A stretch of 47,923 nt of DNA from an uncultured Bacilli bacterium (GCA_947600335.1 CANQGB010000003.1:1-47923), one strand, 5' to 3'. Shown: positions 22,961 through 39,766, counted from the first letter of the stretch. The notes: generated by a model from the sequence alone, not told the origin. Made by a program: numbers and translations.

Positions 22961-24934
22961 CTATTTCTTAATATTTTTAATATATTCACATATTAAATCA
23001 GCAGTTTGTTCTTTACCAATACTAGAATCAATACATAAATCATAGTTATTTAAATCTAACCAATTTTCTCCCGAAATCAATTCATAATAACTAGCCCTAT
23101 TCTTATCTGACTTGATAATATTTTTCTTGGCTTCCGCTTTAGTATCATGATACATATCCATAACATTTTGAATCCGATAATCCATTGGAGCATAAATCAT
23201 TATTTTAACTAAATTTTTATTATTCTTTAAAACATAATCAGCCGCTCTACCGACAATGACACATGAACCTTTTTGAGCAATCATTTTAATTGCCTTTTCT
23301 TGGGCCACAATTGCATATTTAACTGGTGAAGATGTCAAATACAAATCATGTAATACATTTTGACTTTGATTAATATTCGATACAAATTCTTTATCTAAAC
23401 CACTTTCTTGCGCAGCAATCGCAATCATTTCTTTATAATAGCAAGGAATATTTAACTTTTGAGCCACTAATTCCCCAATTGCTTTTCCTTGACTACCATG
23501 ACATCTCGCAATGGTAATAATCACTCCTTGTTGAGTTTCTTTTAAACTGCTTTCAACATAATTATTTTCCGTGTTTCTATCCAAATGTTTAAAGAAATTA
23601 ATAATTAAGACAACTGTTACTATTAAACCAAGAAAATCCGCAATCGGAGCAGCAATTAAAGCTCCTTTTATTCCCATATATTTCGGTAAAATTATAACTA
23701 ATGGTACAAAGAAAACAATATCTCTAGCTAATGATACTATTGTTGCTTTTAAAGGTTCTCCAACTGCTTGAAAAAAGATAGAACACATTTTAATTAAACA
23801 GGTAAATGTTACTAAAATTAAGAATATTCTAAATGTTAACACAGCAAATTCCATATATAATTCTTCACTTGAACCAAAGATTTTAATAATTACACTCGGA
23901 CATAATTCAAAAACAAGAGTTGATAACAAGCCAATAATCGTTGAAACTATCACAACTGTTTTAAAAGTTTCTTTAACTCGAGCCATATTCTTAGCTCCAT
24001 AGTTATAACCTAAAATTGGTTGAGCTCCTAAAATAATCCCGACAATGATATTTATGACTATTGAAAATACTTTCATAGTAATTCCAATTACTGCGATGGG
24101 AATGTCAGCCCCATATTTACTTAAAGCGCCATATTTAGCTAACATTATGTTACAAACTAAAGAAATAATAACAATACTCATTTGGGTAATAAAAGTAGAT
24201 ACTCCTAATTTAATAACATTTTTAAAAACATTCATATCTAATTTAAAACTATCTAAACATAATTTAAAAGTCTTAGTTCGAGTATAGTAATAAATGGAAA
24301 TTAATAACGTTGCTATTTGACCAATTATGGTCGCATAAGCTGCTCCTTTAATACCCCAATTTAAACCAAAAATAAATACTGGATCTAAAATAATGTTAAT
24401 AATAGCCCCACTAGCTGTTGCTAACATTGAAAATTTTGGTGACCCATCGGCTCTAATGACAGCATTCATACTATTTCCTAACATATAAACGGGAATAGCT
24501 GCTAAAATAATATTATAATAATCTCTAGCCAAAGCAATACTTTTTTCACTTGCACCAAATAAATATAATAAATTATCCCGAAAAATAAAACCTAAGAATA
24601 AAAAAATTATACTTATAATAAAAGATAATAAAATACTATTTCCAATCGCTTTATGAGCATTCTTAGTATCTTTTCGCCCTTGACATAAAGATAAATATGC
24701 GGCTGAACCATCACCAAAACACCAAGCAAATGCTACCGCAATAATCGTAATCGGATAAACAACACCTGTCGCGGCATTGCCTAAATAACCTAAATCACTA
24801 TTACCAATAAAAATTTGGTCAACAATATTGTATAATGAACTAATAAGTAAAGATAAAACACAAGGAACAGCAAACTTAAAAAGTAATTTACCTATTTTTT
24901 CATGACCTAAAAAATTATTATCTTGATTTTTCAT
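22961..24934 (-). CDS. MATE efflux transporter (MepA-like) fused to a cytidylate-kinase-like domain
   Basis: LYNIVDQIFIG, NIILDPVFI, QPILGYNYGA. C-terminal ITIAR.HGSQG, VIVGRAADY, DKNRASYY, YDLCIDS. Confidence 0.9.
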   Translation of the reverse strand: MKNQDNNFLGHEKIGKLLFKFAVPCVLSLLISSLYNIVDQIFIGNSDLGYLGNAATGVVYPITIIAVAFAWCFGDGSAAYLSLCQGRKDTKNAHKAIGNSILLSFIISIIFLFLGFIFRDNLLYLFGASEKSIALARDYYNIILAAIPVYMLGNSMNAVIRADGSPKFSMLATASGAIINIILDPVFIFGLNWGIKGAAYATIIGQIATLLISIYYYTRTKTFKLCLDSFKLDMNVFKNVIKLGVSTFITQMSIVIISLVCNIMLAKYGALSKYGADIPIAVIGITMKVFSIVINIIVGIILGAQPILGYNYGAKNMARVKETFKTVVIVSTIIGLLSTLVFELCPSVIIKIFGSSEELYMEFAVLTFRIFLILVTFTCLIKMCSIFFQAVGEPLKATIVSLARDIVFFVPLVIILPKYMGIKGALIAAPIADFLGLIVTVVLIINFFKHLDRNTENNYVESSLKETQQGVIITIARCHGSQGKAIGELVAQKLNIPCYYKEMIAIAAQESGLDKEFVSNINQSQNVLHDLYLTSSPVKYAIVAQEKAIKMIAQKGSCVIVGRAADYVLKNNKNLVKIMIYAPMDYRIQNVMDMYHDTKAEAKKNIIKSDKNRASYYELISGENWLDLNNYDLCIDSSIGKEQTADLICEYIKNIKK

Positions 24935-25143: not shown

Positions 25144-28100
25144 TTATTTTAAGGTTGGATAACCATTACTTGAAACAGTATCTAAATTCCAGATAGTTTC
25201 ATCAAAATGTAATGTATCTTTGTAGAAATTTTTATCATGAACATTTTTTTCTGTTGCCACATCTAGTTTTCCTTTAGTAGCATCTGTTACTCGTGAAAAA
25301 CCAATAGCACCAGCATATTCATAACAATTTTCTAATGTATTCAAAATAGTACTTTCTACAGTTCCTGTAAATTTATAAGGAACAAAATCTTCATCATTTT
25401 TTGTATAGCCAGTCATTTTACCAAAAGCAATCGAATTTTTAATTCGTGGTGCATTATAAATATTTCCCACAAATCCCGCATTATATATGCTATCTGCTTT
25501 ATTTCGATTGTCACTAGTTTTTATAACATCAACCTTAGAAACAACATTTTCAACTAATCCACCTAATTGTAAGGCTCCAACAATGCCTCCATTTTCAGTA
25601 TTAAAGCATTCAATGGTTCCTTCAACATAAACATTTTTAATTGAGCCACCATATTTTCTACCAATAAATGTCGAAATATACACTCCCGTACCTTTTACTT
25701 TGGCATTTACTACACTAATATTTTCAAATGCAGAATTTTTATCATCAACAGCTACAACTGGTGCAACACGATGTTTACCTTCTAAAGTAATATTTTCAAA
25801 GCGCATATTTTTAAATGTCGCTCCGTTAGAATTATTAGCAAAAGCTGAAACATTTTCCCATTCTCCAGCATTAGGTTTTATATTCGTAAAATCTTTAATT
25901 CTCAAGTTAGATACACTACCTTCAAAATCATTAAATAATGTATATCCCTTTAAATTTTTAATTGTATAATTATTACCTTCTAATTTTCCCGTAAACGTTT
26001 CTATTATTATAGCATCTATACCAAATATATTAGTAAAAGTTCTACCCTCAAAATCTAAATCAGCAGTTAATTCATAATATTTATCGGGAGCATCACTAAT
26101 TTTTAAGAAATCATCCACAGTAGCTATTTCAATCTTATTTATAATATTAATATCTGAATTAGTATCTAATTTACTATTTAAAGATGGTAATTTACCACTT
26201 TCCACTTTACTTAAATTCCAAATATTGGCATCCCAACCTAAAGTATTTGTATAGAAATTATTAGTTAAACCATTTGTTCTAATAGAAGTTATTTTATCTT
26301 TGAAACTATCAACATCTGTTCTATTTAAAGTTGAAAGTCCAAATGGTTCTTCTAATTCGTAATTATTTTTAAAGTTATTAAACATGTCTTTACCACTACG
26401 GCCATCAAACTTATAAGCATGAGTACCATTTCCTAAAGAAATTGAGTTTTCGATCCGGCCAGTATTCAAAATTTGGCCAATGAAGCCACCACCCATGGCA
26501 CCTGTTGCCGTTACATCAACTTTACTTAAACAATTTTTAATAACTGTGCTACCTTCAGCCCAGCCGACAAAGCCTCCAACATCATTGTGACCTTTTATGG
26601 TACCTAAAGCATAACTATTAGTAGCAATCGAATTATCAAATTGACCGAAGAATCCTCCTACTGCATTACCTGTAGCATCAACATTTCCATTACTTGAACA
26701 TTCTTCCACTATCATTTGGGTTCCATAACCAGTTAAACCACCAGTTCTATCAGTACCACTTACATTGACAGTGTTAATATGAACATTTTTCATATAGCTT
26801 CTTGAAGCACTACCAATTAAGCCACCAGCTTGTTTCGCACTCGTTGTAATATTAATATTATTAGCTGCGACATTGGTAATTTGAGAATTACTTATAACTT
26901 TAGCTAAAGCCCCACAATCTATCTCAGCAGTTATTATACTTGCATTCTCGATATTTAAATTTGTTACACTAGCATAAGTCAATTTCGCAAACAATGGTAA
27001 TTTAATTCCAGTTATTATATGATTATTACCATCAAGTGAACCATAGAAGGCTTCTCTAATAATAGCATTTCCTTCAGTAATACTAGAAACATCAATATCA
27101 TTATCTAAAATAAATTCTCCATGTAAATTACTTTCAATTAAATTTCTAAAATCTTCAGCATTCTTAATGTGAATTTTATCGACATTAGTATTAAAAATAT
27201 CTGATTCAAAATCATTCGTAATTCTCTTAATATGACCATAAATCATTTGTCTAAATATTGCCATACTACTTGTCTTACTATTTTGAACATTATTTGCAAT
27301 ATCATTTTTAACTTTAGTTTCAATTTCTTTCATTAAAGTATCTTTATTCAAATAAGTACTATTATTTAATTTTTCTTCAATTTTCTTATATCTATCTAAT
27401 TGATATTCTTTCCAATTCTTATAGTTACTTACAGCTTTTAAAGCTTCTAAATCAGTTTTATAACCCCATCCTGCATAAGCAGAATATCCGTCATAACCAA
27501 AGTCAGCTAACATTTGATAAGCAATTAAAGTCCAATTGCCTTTTTCGACTAGTCCATTATCATTATGAACTACATACCAATTAGCACTACCTAATAAACT
27601 AGTTCCCTCTCGTGGAATAACAATCTTATTATCCCATAAGTCACTAATATTTTTTAATTTCATCTTTTTAAAGTCTTCAGCCGTTTTGGTAACCAGTTTC
27701 GTACTAATATTAGTAATTGTTTCTTTATCATTTAATTTAACATCCGTACTTGTTTCTTCAACAACTCTTGCTATTTTACTTTGTTCTTCCGGAGTTAATT
27801 TTAAGAATACTTGCGCTTCTAAATAATCTAAAGCTGCATATACATCAAACATCTTTTTATAGAAATCTTCAATTTCTTCTCTTGTATTAATTCGCTCAAA
27901 ATTAAAGTTTGTGGCAATATTAGTATCAAAATTATAATCATATGTATAATTTGGAACTATGCCATATTCGCCAGCACCTTGAGTTAAGAATCCATCTGTA
28001 AAGTATTCAGCATTAGCTCCCGCTCTTCTTCCTGTTCCATCTAGGAAAGTATTTCCATCTTGATTGTGAATAGCTTCATGCGTAAATATTGAATAGAATG

Positions 28101-31100
28101 TTAAAGCCGAATAAATCCAATAAATATCGGTACCATTAGCATAAGCCGAAGCAGCACTATGAACTGTATACTTATTTAAAACCTCAAAGAAAGCTTTATA
28201 TACTGGTTTAACATTTTCTTCATTAGACCAATTCTTATTTGAAGTTTTATCGTAGTTAATCATTGTTCGGCTAACCATATTGCCATAACCTTTTTCACTA
28301 GTTACACCAGCAATTGAATCATAAAATTTAGTTGCTTTATCAGCAAATTGTGTTAATAAAGTCATTCTTTCAGCTTTCGTAGTTTCTGCAAAAGTAGCTT
28401 TACCTAAAGCATTTAAATATTCATGTTCATCCAAGTTTCCAACCATTATACAAGTTGGAATACCTAAGATATATAAATCTTCACCATGATAAGATAAAAT
28501 TGGTAAAATCAACAAATCTCTAGCTTTTAAGTGATCCCAAACTCGATAACGTATTTCCGGATGTCTTTCCGCTTGAGCTTCATAAACAGTACCTGAATAA
28601 TTATCAACAATCCAACTAGCTGGATCATTCTTATACTTATCAATTGTTAAATTCTTTATAAAGTACTCTATAAATGGACCAACACTAAGATCATTAGTTA
28701 AAGGTTTAATATATTTATTAAAATAACTTGGTAGCTTACTTTCCTCATTTATCATTCTTTCCTTATCGCTTGCCATATCTACCATTGTCAAACTTACAGA
28801 TAATGGATTTAATTTATCACTAAAAATATTTCCATCAAAATAAACGATATCACTAATATTAATTCCACCTATTTGAATATTATAGAACCGATCATAATAA
28901 TTATAAGCATATAATAATTTTTCTAAAGTATAATTATTTTCTAAATCTTGAATAACTTTATTTTCTAATATTTCATTTAAGACTGATATACTATACTCAT
29001 CCACATTAGCTAATAATTTTAAAGCAAAACTATCAGCATTATCTTTAACATGAGCATAATTTTCAACAAAAATTCGAGATTCAGTTTCACTAGTCAAAGA
29101 TGCTATATTATTAACATAATTTAATTTTTTTATCCTATCAACTATATAACTATAAACCTTTGATTTAGTATTAATCAAATATTTGCTATACATATAATCG
29201 ATATCTAGTTCATTAATATCATATACGGCTATTCTATCCCCACTATCTTTTAAAGATACATGATAAACAGCTGTATCATCATCTTCAAATATAACTCTAA
29301 TAGTTTTTATAGTTGATTTATTGTTTTGAGCTAAAGCTACTACTTGATTTCCATTTGCATCATAAGCATATACATCTTTAATAACTTTTGTATTTAAAAT
29401 ATGATTAACATCTAAGATATTTCCATCTTCTACATAATACTTAGCATCATAGAAAGGCATTAATTTATACATATTATGATAAGCAATATTACGAGTTGCA
29501 TCATAATTAGCTAAATTTTTAATTCGTGCTAAATCTGGAATAAATATGCCATCAACTGTATTACTTTCCATTTTAGCATTATCTGTATTTTGATATGCTT
29601 TTAATGTTGGATATTGTCCAGAACTTACTTGTGATAAATCCCAAACATCTTCACTCCAACCTAAAGTTTTAGTATAGAATTCTTTGGTTTTTAATTGTTC
29701 TGGAGTAACAACTTTTATACCTTGTATATTTTCTTGAGACACCATATTTGATGTCGATAACTCATATACCTTCGTAGACTTATCACTTATTTTAGAATTT
29801 TGATAAGAACCATAAACTTTTAACCCATAACCATCAAGCTTAGCTTGAGATAAACTAATACAATTTGTTAAGGTAAGGCCTTTTGGATGTCCAACAAAGC
29901 CTCCTCGTGAACCACCTTTACCATTATAATTAGTCATAACATTGGTATAGAAATTTTCAATGATACTATTATCATAAGCTTCACCTACAACTCCACCAAC
30001 TGCATCATTATTCGCATTAAGAGTTCCAGATATAAAACCATTTTTGATCGTAGTTGTATACATCATACCAACTATGCCACCTAATCTTTTAGCGCTTCCT
30101 ACATTAACATTAGTTGCTGAGATATTCTCTAATTGGCTATTTTTTATAATTCCACCAAATAATCCTGAACCAGCATCATTTATAGTACTAAGTTGAACAT
30201 TCTTCATGTGAACATTTTTAATCGTGGCATTTGTTATATTATTAGCAAGTAAACCATTTGCATTAGCCCGAGAATCTATAATTACTAAATTCTCAATCGT
30301 AGCATCTTTTAAACTATCAAATAATGGAATAGACATATTTTTAATAGTATGACCTTGGAAATCGATTGTTCCTGTAAATTCTTGTGGAATTATCGCCTTT
30401 CCTGAAGTTATATTTTTAGCATCAAAATCCGCATTAACTTTATAAGAACCATCTGGATCTTGTTTAATAAGTTCTATTAAAGTATCAACATCTATATTAC
30501 TTGCTATATCACCATTAATACTACCAAAAGTAATTTCTAATTGATTAATTCGACTATTTCCGTTATATTGAACAACATTATCATAATCTAAAATGAATTT
30601 TAACAAACCATCTTCTATTTTATAATCTTTAATTGTTGTATAGAAATCTCTATCATCTTTTAAGTTAACTTGAACAATATACTTACTTAAATCTTGTAAA
30701 TCAGCAATATTAACATTCGAAATCTTTTCAACTTTATTACCTTTTTGCGTAAATAATGTCATACCTAAAACGTTTTTCATTTCTAAGAAACGTTCACCAA
30801 TATTCATTTCTTCACTTAAGATTAATTCATTTGTAATTTCATTTTTACCATTTTCTAAAGTATTCGTATCTAAATCATAATCAACAAATACTTTAAAAAT
30901 ATAGTATTCACTAGTTGTTTTCTTAAATGTTAAAGTATTTTCTCCAACTATAACATCATCATTAGCTACAACAACTCCTTGTTCATTTAAAACATCAATT
31001 TTACCTTTAGTAAATGAATTATCTGTATTTTCTAAATTAAACTTAGCTGTAATAGTCGAATCTTCATTTTCTGTATAACCAAAATTAGTAGCTTTTGGTT

Positions 31101-34100
31101 TATCCTTTAATACCTCGATTTGAACTTGATTATTTTCTTTAATTTCTAAATGTTTATAATTTTCTAAAACAATAGATTCAATTTTAATATCTTTTACTCC
31201 AGCTTCTTTATAACCATCAATTATAACTTTATAACGGTTATTTTCAGATTCTAAAGTATATAATTTACCATTAATTATAGCTTCAATTGGCTTAAACATA
31301 CTAATATTAGTACTAGCAAAAGATAATTCAATTTTCTCATCTTTAGCCAAATATTTTTTCGTTGTAATATCAAAAACTTTTAATTGATAATCAGATATTA
31401 ACTCGACAATTTCACTTGCTAAAACCTCACGATATTGATTTTCCTTATCCTCTTTATTGGTATCTCTATCATATTCAATTTCCATCTTTAAACTATATGG
31501 TTCAGCATTATCAACCGCGAAAGTTACACTATGAGAACCAGGTTCAATAGCTTGAGTCTTAACTGACTTATCACTATTTTTCGTAAGAATAGCTTCTCCA
31601 CTTACAAAACTATCATCATTATCAGTTAATGTATAATAAATCGTTACCGTACTATCATCTGTATTATCTTCTTGATCATCAATAGTTATAGTTGGTTTAT
31701 CTTTTAATACTTCGATTTGAACATTATTTTGGCTAGTTATTTCAACACCATCACTATAAATAAATTTTTTCGCTTTTAATTCTTTAACTCCAGCTGTTCT
31801 AGTAGCCTCTTCTAAAATTACTTGATATAAATTATCGCTTAATTTTATAGCAATACATTCTTCATTATTTACTAAGATTCTAGCAATATCTTCTGATTTA
31901 TTAGTATTTACTCTATAAGTAAGAGCTACTTTTTCACCTTTATTAAAATATACTTTTTCCGTTTTAACCTCTTCAATATCTAAACGTGTTTGTGCAGTAA
32001 CCTCTTTAGTAACAACTAATTCTTCACCACCAACTGCATCCTCAAGACAACTGTAAGAAGCAATTACTTTAACATAATATTTCTCAGTAACTTCTGTTGG
32101 TAAATCCCTATTAAATTGTTTATTTTCAATCTCTTCTTCAGTAAATACGTATCTCGTAATTTCCTCATTATTAGCATTAAATAAAATTACATTAACCCCT
32201 AAAATAGTTTTATCATAGTCGGTTATATCAAATTGAACATTCAATAAATTATTAACAATATCCTCATTTGTTTTAATTTCTGAAATAATTGGTGCTCTTT
32301 TGATTATTGTTAATTTAAGAACATTATCATTATCTATTTTAAAACTTTTACCATTGTCTAATATAATTTCTTCTAATTTAAATTCATTTTCGCCTAAATT
32401 TTCAATTCCTTCTTTTACAGTAATTTCATAATGATCTTGAACCTTTTGAATATCATCATATCTATGACCATTTATTATTACAGCACTTGGTTCATGACTT
32501 GTACTATTAGAACTTACAAAGCCAAGTTGGAAAGCAGCATTTTTTTCAATTGCCATTAATTCTTTACCATTTTGATATGCTTTAAAGCTTCCTACTTTAA
32601 ATTGATAATCAATATTAAATTGTAAATCTTTTGTAACTGTTAAAGCCCCCGTATATTTATCTTTATCAGAAAAATCAGCATTTGTTAAATCGTATTCAAC
32701 CACAATATTTGCTTCATACTTTTCACCATCTACCGCTGGAACAGTTACTTTATTTTGACCATTAGTAATATTTTGAACAACTATTTCTTTATCATTTGAA
32801 TCAGTAATTACAATCCTAGCTTTCGTAATACTAGCATCCTTATCATTTAAATCAAAAGTAATATCTAATTCTTCATTTAAGAAATTTTCTCCTACTGACC
32901 AATTCTTAATTTCTGGAATTTCTTTTAATACATCGATATTAACATCTTTAGCTGTTTTAATTACTTTTTCATTATTTAAAATAACTTTTTCAATATTAAT
33001 ATTTTGAATGCCAGCTCTATCACTTGCTTTTAAAACTACTTGATATGTCCCATCGCTTAAAGTCTCAACTTTATAAGTAGTTCCATTAATAACAACATTT
33101 TCTATTGTAGCCCCATAACTAACATCAGCTGCAAATTTCAAAATAACTTCCGCATTTTTTTCATAAGAATAATTATCTAAACTAACATTAGTAAATGTTA
33201 TTTCATAGTCTAAAGTTTTTTCTAATTTTTGCACTAATAAAGTTAAATCGGTAATGGTTATTTTATTATCACCATTCATATCAGCATTTTCTATGTAAGC
33301 TTTATCAATATTTTCAGAATTAATTAAATAAAGTTCTAAAAGCTCAGCATCAGCATAGTTTACCTCATAATCACCATTTAACTCACCAAGTAATGAATAA
33401 TTGACTGCTAAAGCAACCACCGTTCCAACAAATTGTAGAGAAACTAAGCCAATAGTTGTAAAGAATAAGAAACTATGAAGATTAGTCTTATTATTTTTAT
33501 TTTTATTTTTCTTTTTTATAAACCAATAAGCTAAAACTCCTATTTCAAGGGCAATAACACTTATCACTATTACATAACGTATTTCATTCTTTTTACTTAC
33601 TGCTTTTATATCTTCTATTTCAGTTTTTTCATTTTTATTTGTATTTCTATCATTAGTTGTTGAACTATCCCCACTATTAACATTATTTTCAGTTTTGTTA
33701 TCTTTGTTATCAGTATTATTAGTATTATCATCTGTTCCAATTGTTGGAATAGTTTCTTGAACCTTTATGGCTGAGATAACGGCCTTTTCATTAAAAACAT
33801 TTAAATCTGCTTTACCTTCTGATACCGCTACATCGGCAAAAGTTACTTCCGTATCTTGGGGTAAAATATTATCCCTAACTTTTAAACGAATTTGAACAAT
33901 TTCACTTGGATCTTTAACTCCAACCCGATTAATAGCCACTAATTCTTGGGTATTCGGATTATATTTTAAAGATTCCCACCCATTTAAAGAAATAAAATCA
34001 CTTTGATATACTTTTTCAAAAATGTTTTCATCATAGACCAAAGTAGCTTTATATGCATTAATACCCTTTTCAACATCATTAAAAGTATGCATTTTAAAGG

Positions 34101-34239
34101 TAATTAAAATTTCTTCACCACTTTTAACTTCATAAGAGTTACTAACTGCACTTGCCTTTATTTCAGTTTTGGCCTCGGCTTGTATAAAAGGAACCAAAAC
34201 CCCTAATATTATAAATAGTTTAATTATTGACTTCTTCAT
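25144..34239 (-). CDS. Giant surface zinc metallopeptidase of the M26 (ZmpA/B/C, IgA1 protease) family with N-terminal cohesin-like and dockerin domains
   Basis: Signal peptide; cohesin-like domain; two TM segments; duplicated dockerin Ca loops (ELNGDYEVNYAD, DMNGDNKITITD); AYHNMYKLMPFY; FTHEAIHNQD HEXXH at 28066-28080 with downstream AEYF; GLUG-like beta-helix modules. Confidence 0.85.
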   Translation of the reverse strand: MKKSIIKLFIILGVLVPFIQAEAKTEIKASAVSNSYEVKSGEEILITFKMHTFNDVEKGINAYKATLVYDENIFEKVYQSDFISLNGWESLKYNPNTQELVAINRVGVKDPSEIVQIRLKVRDNILPQDTEVTFADVAVSEGKADLNVFNEKAVISAIKVQETIPTIGTDDNTNNTDNKDNKTENNVNSGDSSTTNDRNTNKNEKTEIEDIKAVSKKNEIRYVIVISVIALEIGVLAYWFIKKKNKNKNNKTNLHSFLFFTTIGLVSLQFVGTVVALAVNYSLLGELNGDYEVNYADAELLELYLINSENIDKAYIENADMNGDNKITITDLTLLVQKLEKTLDYEITFTNVSLDNYSYEKNAEVILKFAADVSYGATIENVVINGTTYKVETLSDGTYQVVLKASDRAGIQNINIEKVILNNEKVIKTAKDVNIDVLKEIPEIKNWSVGENFLNEELDITFDLNDKDASITKARIVITDSNDKEIVVQNITNGQNKVTVPAVDGEKYEANIVVEYDLTNADFSDKDKYTGALTVTKDLQFNIDYQFKVGSFKAYQNGKELMAIEKNAAFQLGFVSSNSTSHEPSAVIINGHRYDDIQKVQDHYEITVKEGIENLGENEFKLEEIILDNGKSFKIDNDNVLKLTIIKRAPIISEIKTNEDIVNNLLNVQFDITDYDKTILGVNVILFNANNEEITRYVFTEEEIENKQFNRDLPTEVTEKYYVKVIASYSCLEDAVGGEELVVTKEVTAQTRLDIEEVKTEKVYFNKGEKVALTYRVNTNKSEDIARILVNNEECIAIKLSDNLYQVILEEATRTAGVKELKAKKFIYSDGVEITSQNNVQIEVLKDKPTITIDDQEDNTDDSTVTIYYTLTDNDDSFVSGEAILTKNSDKSVKTQAIEPGSHSVTFAVDNAEPYSLKMEIEYDRDTNKEDKENQYREVLASEIVELISDYQLKVFDITTKKYLAKDEKIELSFASTNISMFKPIEAIINGKLYTLESENNRYKVIIDGYKEAGVKDIKIESIVLENYKHLEIKENNQVQIEVLKDKPKATNFGYTENEDSTITAKFNLENTDNSFTKGKIDVLNEQGVVVANDDVIVGENTLTFKKTTSEYYIFKVFVDYDLDTNTLENGKNEITNELILSEEMNIGERFLEMKNVLGMTLFTQKGNKVEKISNVNIADLQDLSKYIVQVNLKDDRDFYTTIKDYKIEDGLLKFILDYDNVVQYNGNSRINQLEITFGSINGDIASNIDVDTLIELIKQDPDGSYKVNADFDAKNITSGKAIIPQEFTGTIDFQGHTIKNMSIPLFDSLKDATIENLVIIDSRANANGLLANNITNATIKNVHMKNVQLSTINDAGSGLFGGIIKNSQLENISATNVNVGSAKRLGGIVGMMYTTTIKNGFISGTLNANNDAVGGVVGEAYDNSIIENFYTNVMTNYNGKGGSRGGFVGHPKGLTLTNCISLSQAKLDGYGLKVYGSYQNSKISDKSTKVYELSTSNMVSQENIQGIKVVTPEQLKTKEFYTKTLGWSEDVWDLSQVSSGQYPTLKAYQNTDNAKMESNTVDGIFIPDLARIKNLANYDATRNIAYHNMYKLMPFYDAKYYVEDGNILDVNHILNTKVIKDVYAYDANGNQVVALAQNNKSTIKTIRVIFEDDDTAVYHVSLKDSGDRIAVYDINELDIDYMYSKYLINTKSKVYSYIVDRIKKLNYVNNIASLTSETESRIFVENYAHVKDNADSFALKLLANVDEYSISVLNEILENKVIQDLENNYTLEKLLYAYNYYDRFYNIQIGGINISDIVYFDGNIFSDKLNPLSVSLTMVDMASDKERMINEESKLPSYFNKYIKPLTNDLSVGPFIEYFIKNLTIDKYKNDPASWIVDNYSGTVYEAQAERHPEIRYRVWDHLKARDLLILPILSYHGEDLYILGIPTCIMVGNLDEHEYLNALGKATFAETTKAERMTLLTQFADKATKFYDSIAGVTSEKGYGNMVSRTMINYDKTSNKNWSNEENVKPVYKAFFEVLNKYTVHSAASAYANGTDIYWIYSALTFYSIFTHEAIHNQDGNTFLDGTGRRAGANAEYFTDGFLTQGAGEYGIVPNYTYDYNFDTNIATNFNFERINTREEIEDFYKKMFDVYAALDYLEAQVFLKLTPEEQSKIARVVEETSTDVKLNDKETITNISTKLVTKTAEDFKKMKLKNISDLWDNKIVIPREGTSLLGSANWYVVHNDNGLVEKGNWTLIAYQMLADFGYDGYSAYAGWGYKTDLEALKAVSNYKNWKEYQLDRYKKIEEKLNNSTYLNKDTLMKEIETKVKNDIANNVQNSKTSSMAIFRQMIYGHIKRITNDFESDIFNTNVDKIHIKNAEDFRNLIESNLHGEFILDNDIDVSSITEGNAIIREAFYGSLDGNNHIITGIKLPLFAKLTYASVTNLNIENASIITAEIDCGALAKVISNSQITNVAANNINITTSAKQAGGLIGSASRSYMKNVHINTVNVSGTDRTGGLTGYGTQMIVEECSSNGNVDATGNAVGGFFGQFDNSIATNSYALGTIKGHNDVGGFVGWAEGSTVIKNCLSKVDVTATGAMGGGFIGQILNTGRIENSISLGNGTHAYKFDGRSGKDMFNNFKNNYELEEPFGLSTLNRTDVDSFKDKITSIRTNGLTNNFYTNTLGWDANIWNLSKVESGKLPSLNSKLDTNSDINIINKIEIATVDDFLKISDAPDKYYELTADLDFEGRTFTNIFGIDAIIIETFTGKLEGNNYTIKNLKGYTLFNDFEGSVSNLRIKDFTNIKPNAGEWENVSAFANNSNGATFKNMRFENITLEGKHRVAPVVAVDDKNSAFENISVVNAKVKGTGVYISTFIGRKYGGSIKNVYVEGTIECFNTENGGIVGALQLGGLVENVVSKVDVIKTSDNRNKADSIYNAGFVGNIYNAPRIKNSIAFGKMTGYTKNDEDFVPYKFTGTVESTILNTLENCYEYAGAIGFSRVTDATKGKLDVATEKNVHDKNFYKDTLHFDETIWNLDTVSSNGYPTLK

Positions 34240-38202: not shown

Positions 38203-39009
38203 ATGACCAAACATTACAATTATAAATCTATCATCTTTTTAGCTATTGCCATTGTATTTTTAGGTTTCTCCCTCATTAACTTATATGAATGGTTTACTGA
38301 TAACCAAAAAACTAAAATAATAGAAACTCATATAAATATCACTCCCAAAGAAGAACATCCAAATAATGACAACTTAATCTTAATCAATCCTCCAGAAAAT
38401 CTAAGTGACCCTTACTGGCTTTATCAAGATACGCCTTTTTTAAATATCGATTTTACGCCTTTAATTGCGGAAAATAGAAACACCCAGGCTTGGATTCAAG
38501 TAAATGGTACTAAAATAGACTACCCTGTCGTTCAAACAACCGATAATGAATATTACTTAACCCATTCTTTTGATAATACTTTTAATAAAGCGGGTTGGAT
38601 TTTTGCTGATTTTCGCAACAACTTTATAAACTTAAACAACAATACAATTATATATGGTCATCGTCGCTTAAATGATTCCATGTTTGGTAGTTTAAAATAT
38701 GTCCTAACCGATGAATGGTTTAACAATCAAAATAATCATTTAGTTAAAATATCGACACCTACTAATAATACCATTTGGCAAATCTTTAGTGTCTATGCCA
38801 TACCCGCCGAAAGTTACTATCTCACAGCCTTTTTTCCTAACAATTTAGAATATCAAAACTTTTTACAAGCCATCACCAAGCACAGTAAATACGACTTTGG
38901 TACTACCATTAACTATCAAGATAAAATTCTTACTCTTTCTTCTTGCCAAGATGATTTAGGCAACCGCATCGTAGTTCATGCTAAATTAATCAAAAAAGAA
39001 ACTCGGTAA
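38203..39009 (+). CDS. srtB: Class B sortase
   Basis: N-terminal TM, IDYPVVQ..DNEYYL.H, IIYGH, MFGSL, ILTLSSC, RIVVHAK. Confidence 0.9.
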   Translation: MTKHYNYKSIIFLAIAIVFLGFSLINLYEWFTDNQKTKIIETHINITPKEEHPNNDNLILINPPENLSDPYWLYQDTPFLNIDFTPLIAENRNTQAWIQVNGTKIDYPVVQTTDNEYYLTHSFDNTFNKAGWIFADFRNNFINLNNNTIIYGHRRLNDSMFGSLKYVLTDEWFNNQNNHLVKISTPTNNTIWQIFSVYAIPAESYYLTAFFPNNLEYQNFLQAITKHSKYDFGTTINYQDKILTLSSCQDDLGNRIVVHAKLIKKETR

Positions 39010-39030
39010 TCAATCATACCGAGATTCTTT
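38995..39030. terminator. Bidirectional terminator between srtB and its convergent neighbour
   Basis: AAGAAACTCGGTA-N8-TACCGAGATTCTT. Confidence 0.7.
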
Positions 39031-39766
39031 AAATATACAATTTTTTTAAATTATAGAAAACTGTTCCTAATCCCATCGTACCAATTAAAAGACTTAATCC
39101 GATATAGTCAGCAGTTTGTGGATTAGTTGGAGTTTCAAACATATTTAATACTTCTTGTAAAACTAATTCATCACCTGAATTAATTGTTCTAATCATTCCA
39201 TTCATTTCTATAATAGCATCCTTAGAATCATCAGGAACCCATAAAGTTGGAGCATTTTCTTTTTCTGTTGTATTTACAATCTTAGTATCATTATCCATTT
39301 TTAAATGCGATACTTCTGTAACTCCTTTACCTTGAGATAATTCTATTCCTCCAAAACCATTACCAGATACATCAATAGTTCCTTCTAATTTAATAGTACC
39401 TCCATTTACTAATAAAGCTGCATTACCTCCTGTTAACTTAATATTCCGGAAAGTAGCTTGCGTTTTATAAACTTGGAAAATATAAATTCCACTCCAAATT
39501 TTATTATCGCTAGAACCATTATCACCAAAAGTACCAACATACTTAACTGTATGACCTTTACCATCAATAACTACTGGTCTTAAAATATTAATTTTTTCCG
39601 TTGTATTAATATCTTCGCCAAGAATTATTTCGGTTACTTCATTATTACTTAAAGCTGACTTTAAATCTGCTTGATTATGAACAGTCACACTACTAGCTGC
39701 CTTAACTTTCAAAAATGGAACGACTAATAACATTATAAATATACTTAAAAAAATTGACTTTTTCAT
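39029..39766 (-). CDS. Secreted beta-helix (pectin-lyase-like) surface protein with NPQTA sorting signal
   Basis: Signal peptide ending VKA, DLKSAL...IILGEDI beta-helix start, C-terminal NPQTAD plus TM plus KK. Confidence 0.75.
   Translation of the reverse strand: MKKSIFLSIFIMLLVVPFLKVKAASSVTVHNQADLKSALSNNEVTEIILGEDINTTEKINILRPVVIDGKGHTVKYVGTFGDNGSSDNKIWSGIYIFQVYKTQATFRNIKLTGGNAALLVNGGTIKLEGTIDVSGNGFGGIELSQGKGVTEVSHLKMDNDTKIVNTTEKENAPTLWVPDDSKDAIIEMNGMIRTINSGDELVLQEVLNMFETPTNPQTADYIGLSLLIGTMGLGTVFYNLKKLYI

Follow-up and report, generated by a model that had tools for sequence, protein, structure and literature searches.

A cohesin and a dockerin flanking a membrane hairpin in an M26/Zmp-family protease gene of an uncultured Bacilli bacterium: a candidate cut-and-redock display cassette

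What could a cohesin and a dockerin do for a secreted enzyme that carries both in one polypeptide, with a membrane hairpin between them? The question is raised by a gene in a 47,923-nucleotide stretch of DNA from an uncultured Bacilli bacterium (GCA_947600335.1 CANQGB010000003.1:1-47923), called the window below. The gene occupies positions 25144-34239 on the minus strand as a single intact open reading frame (ORF) of 3031 amino acids, and encodes a secreted M26/Zmp-family zinc metalloprotease with an N-terminal cassette of cohesin, transmembrane (TM) hairpin and dockerin. An earlier annotation made from the sequence alone, referred to here as the original prediction, had proposed that this protein tethers itself: a membrane-anchored cohesin would be left behind by signal peptidase, and the freed dockerin-protease would re-dock on it. 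We favor this reading with a probability of roughly 0.55 and extend it to the relatives: the enzyme would be cut loose by signal peptidase and would re-dock on its own cohesin stalk, which would be held by TM1 in the window's clade and by sortase in relatives that have an LPXTG-like motif. The fold, the predicted binding and the predicted topology all leave the proposal standing in silico, and from motif and model we infer the cleavage and the binding.

Architecture of the protein

A search with residues 1-345 recovered 54 clusters of proteins of 2072-4267 amino acids, which mostly cover the whole query at 26-82% identity and have the same order of parts at their N-termini. Residue r of the ORF corresponds to nucleotides 34239-3r+1 to 34239-3(r-1), and all features of the gene given below lie on the minus strand. 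The translation bears out the N-terminal order and coordinates of the original prediction, from a signal peptide ending in QAEA through the linker, TM1, a lysine-rich loop and a TM2 ending in A-L-A to a two-loop dockerin. The Sec signal peptide (residues 1-23; 34171-34239) has, in the translation, a basic n-region, a hydrophobic core and A-E-A ahead of K24; a hydrophobic N-terminal window is present in 49 of the 54 homologues. It is followed by a beta-rich cohesin module (residues 24-165; 33745-34170) and by a low-complexity linker rich in T, D, N and K (residues 166-221; 33577-33744), which contains no sortase motif; the LPXTG-like motifs of relatives stand at the end of this linker. TM1 (residues 222-241; 33517-33576) has a hydropathy window at 223-241 with a mean of 2.44 and bears a glutamate (E232) mid-helix. 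The basic loop KKKNKNKNNK (residues 242-251; 33487-33516) provides six lysines, and K, R and N dominate columns 6-11 of the family alignment. TM2 (residues 254-278; 33406-33480), a segment resembling an internal signal peptide, contains Q269 and G272 and ends in V-V-A-L-A, and the type I dockerin (residues 282-345; 33205-33396), recognized by Pfam and phmmer, comprises two calcium-loop repeats.

Approximately 770 residues of repeats separate the dockerin from the protease. Pfam Peptidase_M26_N matches residues 1119-1345 (E 5e-31), and residues ~1149-2214 (roughly 1070 residues; 27598-30795) match the solved Gram-positive IgA1 metalloproteases 7uvk, 6xjb, 7jgj and 6xja with E-values of 5e-34 to 5e-32 (phmmer against PDB sequences). 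This second region overlaps the Pfam match and holds the catalytic domain with the zinc-binding motif H-E-A-I-H (residues 2054-2058; 28066-28080), of which H2054, E2055 and H2058 are near-invariant among 53 aligned homologues. An M26 protease had been expected to follow the dockerin, and its N-terminal homology, catalytic homology and HExxH motif are all present. Because the NCBIfam models for ZmpB, ZmpC and ZmpA give partial matches of, in ascending order, 108.6, 114.2 and 151.5 bits, far under their cut-offs of 3000, the protease is by these sequence scores a distant Zmp-family enzyme and an orthologue of none of ZmpA, ZmpB and ZmpC.

For the cohesin, Pfam alone gave no decision. Cohesin (PF00963) was not listed at E<=1 by hmmscan of residues 1-400, the genome search scored it at 22.4 bits (E 1e-4; profile positions 10-125 of 139) under a cut-off of 24.1, and phmmer of the N-terminus against PDB sequences returned dockerin matches only and no cohesins. 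The assignment was therefore based on relatives and on the predicted fold. Among 1.84 billion representatives, phmmer with residues 24-165 found 561 relatives at E<=1e-3, 135 of them at E<=1e-10. The Pfam Cohesin cut-off is passed by 18 of the 24 relatives scanned, which are linked to the window's domain at E 1e-32 to 1e-10; the Pfam check suggested by the original prediction thus fails narrowly for the window's copy and succeeds for close relatives that are 44-48% identical to it, such as P0057 (48%; 38.9 bits) and P0061 (34.5 bits). An AlphaFold2 model of the domain, built on a 71-sequence alignment, has nine strands, a pLDDT of 93.3 and a pTM of 0.86. Foldseek returned 129 PDB matches at E<=1e-3; nearly all among the matches listed are cohesins with a probability of 1.00, and the nearest of those listed by TM-score is the cohesin of Clostridium perfringens GH33 (2vo8; 0.75/0.78). 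By homology through its relatives and by its predicted nine-stranded beta-sandwich fold, residues 24-165 are a cohesin, in line with the cohesin-like domain first proposed.

The dockerin passes directly: Dockerin_1 (PF00404), which was also named as a check and has a cut-off of 22.9 bits, reaches 38.8 bits (E 1.1e-9) by hmmscan and 43.6 bits by genome search, and phmmer against PDB sequences aligns residues 282-344 with type I dockerins of known structure, among them 2yik and 1daq. Loop 1 reads E-L-N-G-D...D297, with positions 1, 3, 5 and 12 taken by E286, N288, D290 and D297, and loop 2 is canonical (D-M-N-G-D...D331), with D320, N322, D324 and D331 in the same positions. Judged by sequence, both repeats have the acidic or amide residues of a calcium loop at these four positions, and D297, D320, N322 and D331 are invariant in the 53 homologues.

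The hairpin, the anchor and the candidate cut

To follow the hairpin through the family, we used nine closer alignment rows as the query of a genome scan (one genome per species), which gave 221 pattern matches and 128 confirmed relatives, of which the best 80 were kept. The two-TM cassette is found in 67 of these 80 loci, the others being 12 TM-less proteins of ~300 amino acids and one fragment. A dockerin-loop pattern with two preceding hydrophobic segments then selected 163 of 275 pooled proteins, 151 of them unique; the 112 dropped have no cassette or are fragments, and the presence of two hydrophobic segments ahead of the dockerin in 151 of 151 follows from the construction of the filter. 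The survey of relatives that had been recommended thus places the architecture in 151 unique proteins. Named carriers are MAGs (metagenome-assembled genomes) of uncultured Bacilli, of 'Tenericutes' and Mollicutes and of Clostridia, as well as Mediterraneibacter and the cultured Sellimonas caecigallum JCM 35759. One Bacilli-type cassette gene (L071, CAZWXX010000034.1) sits in a MAG labelled Muribaculaceae (Bacteroidota), which is probably a binning error and not a transfer. In the 12 TM-less proteins (L067, L072, L073, L075-L083; ~300-320 amino acids, from Clostridia MAGs), a signal peptide and a cohesin that belongs to the same subfamily are followed by a small middle module and, at the C-terminus, by a dockerin whose sequence is unlike those of the Zmp proteins; several occur per genome (L080, L081), and they could chain or act as adaptors.

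Applied to the sequence, the positive-inside rule puts the cohesin and the dockerin both outside the cell, behind a cleavable signal peptide, TM1, the six-lysine loop and TM2, and not on opposite sides of the membrane, an arrangement that would have spoken against self-tethering. TM1 is read as a stop-transfer anchor that would keep the cohesin piece, and the loop KKKNKNKNNK as a cytoplasmic segment that would double as the charged tail of TM1 and the n-region of an internal signal peptide.

An n/h/c layout, a helix breaker and small residues at -3 and -1 characterize a signal peptidase I substrate under von Heijne's rules. Across the alignment of 151 unique cassettes, a K/R/N-rich stretch precedes the hydrophobic core of TM2, Gly stands at -5 in 105 cassettes, and the -3 column holds V66, T34, I28, A12, C3 and S2 (145 of 151 rows). 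The -1 column, which is aligned with A276, holds A100, G18 and S5 (A/G/S in 123 of 151). This pattern suggests that the TM2 region has the layout of a signal peptidase I substrate throughout the family, and the bacterium's own genome has a signal peptidase I (128.5 bits). Two candidate cuts, after A276 (V-V-A↓L, at the family-aligned Ala) or after A278 (A-L-A↓V), obey the -3/-1 rule. The original prediction had placed the cut after ALA; a small-residue site is indeed conserved across the family, but the conserved Ala aligns with A276, two residues earlier, and the cut itself is deduced from the motif.

In form, TM1 corresponds to the hydrophobic segment of a cell-wall sorting signal and the basic loop to its charged tail, a point absent from the original prediction. 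An xPx[TA]G motif (LPKTG, LPQTG, LPRTG, LPYTG, IPKTG, SPNTG etc.) stands just ahead of TM1 in 46 of the 151 cassettes, and a TG[DE]-type motif (NVKTGD, SVQTGD) in 11 under a strict rule to 19 under a loose one. About 40% of the family, including many Clostridia, keep an LPXTG-like motif in this position, which likewise had not been noted before. The TGD class is held uncertain because NVQTG is a proposed sortase motif of C. difficile that was not cleaved by SrtB in vitro (PMC4155245); on the same ground the xVxTGD of Lachnospiraceae relatives was rejected as a proven sortase site. A remnant of the form xKT..Y, [IV]-x-K-T-[TSN]-x-x-[YF], is found just before TM1 in 31 of the 151 cassettes (P0004-P0020, L005-L031), which belong to the wider clade of the window's protein and have ~35-40% overall identity. 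The window's protein reads S-K-K-N-E-I-R-Y at this place and has lost the remnant, and the remaining cassettes have neither motif nor remnant before TM1. The xKT..Y remnant was considered as a possible new sorting motif; it is without Pro and Gly and unlike the NPxTG signals of the genome.

The absence of LPXTG noted in the original prediction was confirmed: no LPXTG-like motif lies ahead of TM1 in the window's protein, which by motif would not be a sortase substrate, having TM1 and the six-lysine tail and lacking the motif. The C-terminal sorting signals of its own genome are NP[QD]T[GAS] in five proteins (regular-expression scan of ORF ends), with nothing alike before TM1, and the Gram_pos_anchor hidden Markov model (HMM) finds weak matches only in this genome, at 15 and 11.6 bits. 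Loss of the cell wall was rejected as the cause of the missing LPXTG, as the genome contains five matches to penicillin-binding-protein-type transpeptidases, five sortase matches and five sortase substrates. In a quick, unrooted FastTree tree of 150 cassettes, the window's protein falls in a clade of 60 rows with a support of 98, in which 0 of 60 rows carry the motif and all named members come from Bacilli, Tenericutes or Mollicutes MAGs; the neighboring groups carry PxTG or TGD motifs. With such a tree, loss of the motif in the window's Bacilli clade is the likelier reading rather than a demonstrated one, and as TM1 and the loop still have the form of a sorting signal, membrane anchoring in this clade looks derived.

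Two further observations concern sortases. Five sortase matches occur in a genome of only 1.23 Mb. Within the window, a sortase gene (38203-39009, plus strand; Pfam Sortase, E 3e-12) and the gene for a 245-residue protein (39029-39766, minus strand) are arranged tail to tail; the 245-residue protein has a pectate-lyase-like adhesive domain and a C-terminal sorting signal made of NPQTA, a hydrophobic segment and a basic tail.

The cassette is not confined to proteases. The same head of cohesin, LPXTG, two TM segments and dockerin is found on proteins of the GH5 cellulase family (P0101, P0162), on BNR/sortilin-like proteins (P0128, P0158, P0167) and on a DUF4874/DUF4832 protein (P0092). P0182 (2056 amino acids) has it mid-chain, with the cohesin at 1040-1158, the LPXTG/TM segments and the dockerin at 1296-1348 between an EndoS-like leucine-rich-repeat region and a BNR region; if cut and sorted, this protein would leave functional domains on both halves. 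The same cohesin subfamily also occurs in small proteins composed of signal peptide, cohesin, LPXTG and TM, which are common, and in multi-cohesin proteins with a C-terminal dockerin, such as P0055 with four cohesins. Two genomes that carry the one-gene form have two-gene versions as well, in which an enzyme ending in a dockerin is directly followed by a small cohesin anchor. At L094 an enzyme of 1016 amino acids precedes an anchor of 259 amino acids with LPQTG, which matches the family HMM with 68 bits and has no Pfam Cohesin match; at L095 the enzyme has 1355 amino acids and the anchor 280, with LPKTG. On sequence, these gene pairs look like a split form of the one-gene arrangement.

These data bear on the main rival explanation, in which TM2 is never cut. 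The protein would then be a two-pass membrane protein with both modules outside, clasping each other within the chain or arraying neighbors; the tether would be covalent, and the pair would organize or stabilize the enzyme. Several features count against a cut and suit this alternative: Val, atypical for signal peptidase I, occupies -1 in 17 of the 151 cassettes; with about 22-25 residues, TM2 exceeds the core of most signal peptides in length; and conserved polar residues lie inside both helices (E232 in TM1, Q269 in TM2), which suggests a packed hairpin, so that a stable uncut hairpin would also fit. The TM2 residue is Gln in 71 and Glu in 29 of the 151 cassettes, within a Q-F-x-G-T motif, and TM1 has Glu or Gln; such conserved mid-helix polar residues are unusual in a stop-transfer segment or a signal peptide and may serve to pair the two helices or be recognized by a processing enzyme. 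However, an uncut hairpin gives no obvious role to the small residue at -1, the allowed residues at -3 and the Gly at -5. Moreover, at least 46 relatives have an LPXTG-like motif at which sortase would in any case break the chain ahead of TM1, the model for streptococcal proteases also puts a second signal peptidase site here, and in the two-gene versions the modules work on separate chains. We therefore consider an uncut hairpin unlikely.

Predicted pairing of the gene's own cohesin and dockerin

The original prediction held that the two domains bind each other, and complex prediction supports this. The cohesin (residues 24-165) and the dockerin (residues 279-346), modeled with 53 alignment rows each, gave ipSAE values of 0.77, 0.78 and 0.79 in three runs, compared with 0.01 for the best of three controls, with a partner pLDDT of at least 79 and contacts 100% consistent between runs. 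The pair thus passes a mark that 58 of 80 solved complexes attain, as do 2 of 110 mismatched pairs, figures that are roughly valid with a custom alignment. The predicted interface is formed by cohesin residues 60-64, 90-107 and 138-145 and by both helices of the dockerin. It is enriched in conserved cohesin positions: 9 of the 18 invariant or near-invariant positions are among the 27 interface residues of the 142 (Fisher p = 0.0014), and the mean column entropy is 1.31 at the interface and 2.23 over the other cohesin residues. When mutual information after average product correction (APC) is ranked over the 9088 column pairs of cohesin and dockerin, first place belongs to the pair 97-307, both of which are interface residues, and pairs of interface residues make up 4 of the top 8 (hypergeometric p = 9e-4).

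The own genome (1.23 Mb, 69 contigs, 91% complete) holds one cohesin, that of the window's protein, as judged by the Pfam HMM and by a family HMM with its filters off (4.8e-59 for this protein, 0.089 for the next). It holds two dockerins by Pfam Dockerin_1. The second is the C-terminus of an SH3-bearing protein on contig 23 (L002, 9596-12739; a 638-residue open frame), which scores 26-27 bits and has a canonical loop 1 and a degenerate loop 2. The gene after it encodes a protein that begins with a signal peptide, contains a beta-rich and a cadherin-like domain and has a TM segment at its C-terminus. Sellimonas caecigallum JCM 35759, whose genome is complete, gives the same counts as the own genome, a single cohesin (that of its Zmp) and two dockerins, and other carrier genomes have up to 9 cohesin-model matches, some to the anchor part only, and up to 35 dockerins. 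The suggestion that other dockerin proteins might share the anchor thus receives thin support, namely one further dockerin in the genome, and only one, with a degenerate second loop. The system is not a cellulosome, as the genome has a single cohesin and only two dockerins, and no recognized polysaccharide-degrading enzyme carries either of them.

Several points weigh against the binding of this dockerin by this cohesin. Since many complexes of this textbook pair have been solved, the complex score may reflect likeness to solved pairs and not binding by this copy, and such a score cannot separate a cognate dockerin from another. The top 25 covarying pairs hold 4 interface pairs, which is not significant (p = 0.067), and as shared ancestry inflates such scores, the covariation is modest support. 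A second cohesin could sit in the missing part of a genome that is 91% complete. The cohesin itself stays below its Pfam cut-off, and the first position of dockerin loop 1, usually Asp, is Glu.

The second alternative, which ranks after the uncut hairpin and which we regard as rather improbable, is that the modules are not mutual partners. The dockerin would bind a cohesin in the unassembled 9% of the genome or in other species, the cohesin would recruit another protein, for example the SH3/dockerin protein of contig 23, and the protease would act as an adaptor scaffoldin like ScaA/ScaB. Adaptor scaffoldins that carry cohesins and dockerins of differing specificities on one chain are well known. 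A Coh1-Doc1 unit is described in a scaffoldin with an S8 peptidase-like domain (PMC11557425), and the second dockerin in the genome and the several cohesins and numerous dockerins of some related genomes would also fit. On the other side, neither the own genome, searched with two HMMs, nor the complete related genome has another cohesin; the complex model supports the own-gene pair; the strongest covariation between cohesin and dockerin falls within the predicted interface; and the only other dockerin has the low score and the degenerate loop 2 described above. A third alternative, that both modules are relics without a present binding role on a plain secreted or membrane-bound protease, could appeal to the low Pfam score of the cohesin and to the Glu of loop 1 and is very improbable, given that both modules are conserved over 151 unique cassettes at 26-40% identity, that column entropy is lowered at the interface, and that S140, G142 and D145 of the cohesin interface are, like the four loop residues of the dockerin, invariant in 53 homologues.

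One gene of the window is unrelated to these questions: a 657-residue ORF (22961-24934, minus strand) combines a MatE transporter region (the better of two Pfam MatE stretches at 24-186) with a C-terminal cytidylate-kinase-like domain (472-638), which is an unusual fusion.

A candidate cut-and-redock mechanism among known systems

The cut-and-redock reading would proceed as follows. The N-terminal signal peptide would start export, and the cohesin and its long flexible linker would cross the membrane until TM1 and the lysine-rich loop halt transfer. At TM2, the second signal peptide of the chain and an internal one, export would resume with the dockerin and the protease of ~2750 residues, and signal peptidase I would cut after TM2, at V-V-A or at A-L-A. 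The products would be a membrane-held stalk of cohesin, linker, TM1, loop and TM2, and a free dockerin-protease, which would re-attach to the cohesin through a presumably calcium-dependent type I contact. In Clostridia relatives that bear LPXTG, sortase would move the cohesin piece to the cell wall, as has been proposed for the N-terminal LPXTG of streptococcal Zmps; in the window's Bacilli clade the motif would have been lost and the cohesin kept on TM1. Seen more broadly, and with about even confidence, the cassette may be a portable cut-and-redock display unit that supplies anchor and releasable enzyme 1:1, serves at least four kinds of cargo and has passed from wall to membrane anchoring in a small-genome clade of Bacilli. 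In form it would equal a sortase-anchored cohesin protein fused to a secreted enzyme with a dockerin, with one stretch as both the charged tail of the former and the n-region of the latter.

Several known systems share parts of this design. The non-cellulosomal cohesin-dockerin pairs of C. perfringens glycoside hydrolases and toxins, among which the nearest solved folds are found (2vo8, 2w1n, 2jh2, 2o4e), likewise have a role other than in breaking down cellulose, sit on enzymes whose targets are glycoproteins of the host, and join different secreted enzymes to each other; we know of none with a membrane hairpin or a cut-and-redock design. The C. difficile S-layer precursor SlpA is likewise the product of one gene, is cut after export, and has its halves reassemble non-covalently on the surface. 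SlpA-type precursors, however, use another protease and other interaction domains and have no membrane hairpin. The anchoring scaffoldins of Ruminococcus, such as R. flavefaciens ScaE, which we take to be an example of a sortase-anchored scaffoldin with a single cohesin, resemble the cassette in that one cohesin on a linker is fixed to the surface and holds dockerin proteins; those are separate genes with a C-terminal sorting signal, whereas here a single reading frame has a sorting-signal-like segment mid-chain. Their attachment via sortases is described in PMC11557425. Adaptor scaffoldins of the ScaA/ScaB types and ScaO, the scaffoldin with the Coh1-Doc1 unit and the S8 peptidase-like domain, also have a cohesin and a dockerin in one polypeptide (PMC11557425); in contrast to the window's protein, theirs bind different partners from one soluble chain, with no TM hairpin or internal signal peptide between the modules.

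The closest relatives in layout are the streptococcal Zmps (IgA1 protease/ZmpA, ZmpB, ZmpC and ZmpD; MEROPS M26). In these proteins a signal peptide is followed by a segment that resembles a sorting signal, by two hydrophobic segments for which a second signal peptidase site has been proposed, by repeats and by the HExxH region (PMC3518915), which agrees with the N-terminal LPXTG and two TM segments cited in the original prediction; the secretion model given there for their attachment is a proposal with putative cleavage sites only. Knockout of sortase A depletes the pneumococcal IgA1 protease and ZmpB (PMC13604702). The order of parts is the same and the catalytic regions are homologous, and relatives of the window's protein keep an LPXTG-like motif in the same place. 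The window's copy differs in lacking the N-terminal LPXTG, and its family in that a cohesin separates the signal peptide from the anchor and TM2 is followed by a dockerin; neither module is mentioned in the descriptions consulted of the streptococcal proteins. Cohesin-dockerin pairs and the N-terminal LPXTG of Zmps are each well known; a full-text search of one literature library found no publication that joins the two.

If the cut-and-redock reading is true, this would be the smallest natural cohesin-dockerin system, in which one gene supplies anchor and cargo in equal numbers, and a natural surface-display module that needs no second gene. It would also provide a model for how giant proteases that are sorted at the N-terminus stay on the cell after the chain is severed, and a reason why the LPXTG of Zmps is at the 'wrong' end: the N-terminal piece would be the anchor. 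The cassette occurs in numerous uncultured Bacilli and Clostridia of the gut, and at least one strain that carries it has been cultured; since its cargo has relatives among the proteases that cleave IgA1 and further glycoproteins of the host, the holding and shedding of this cargo would bear on the contact between host and microbe.

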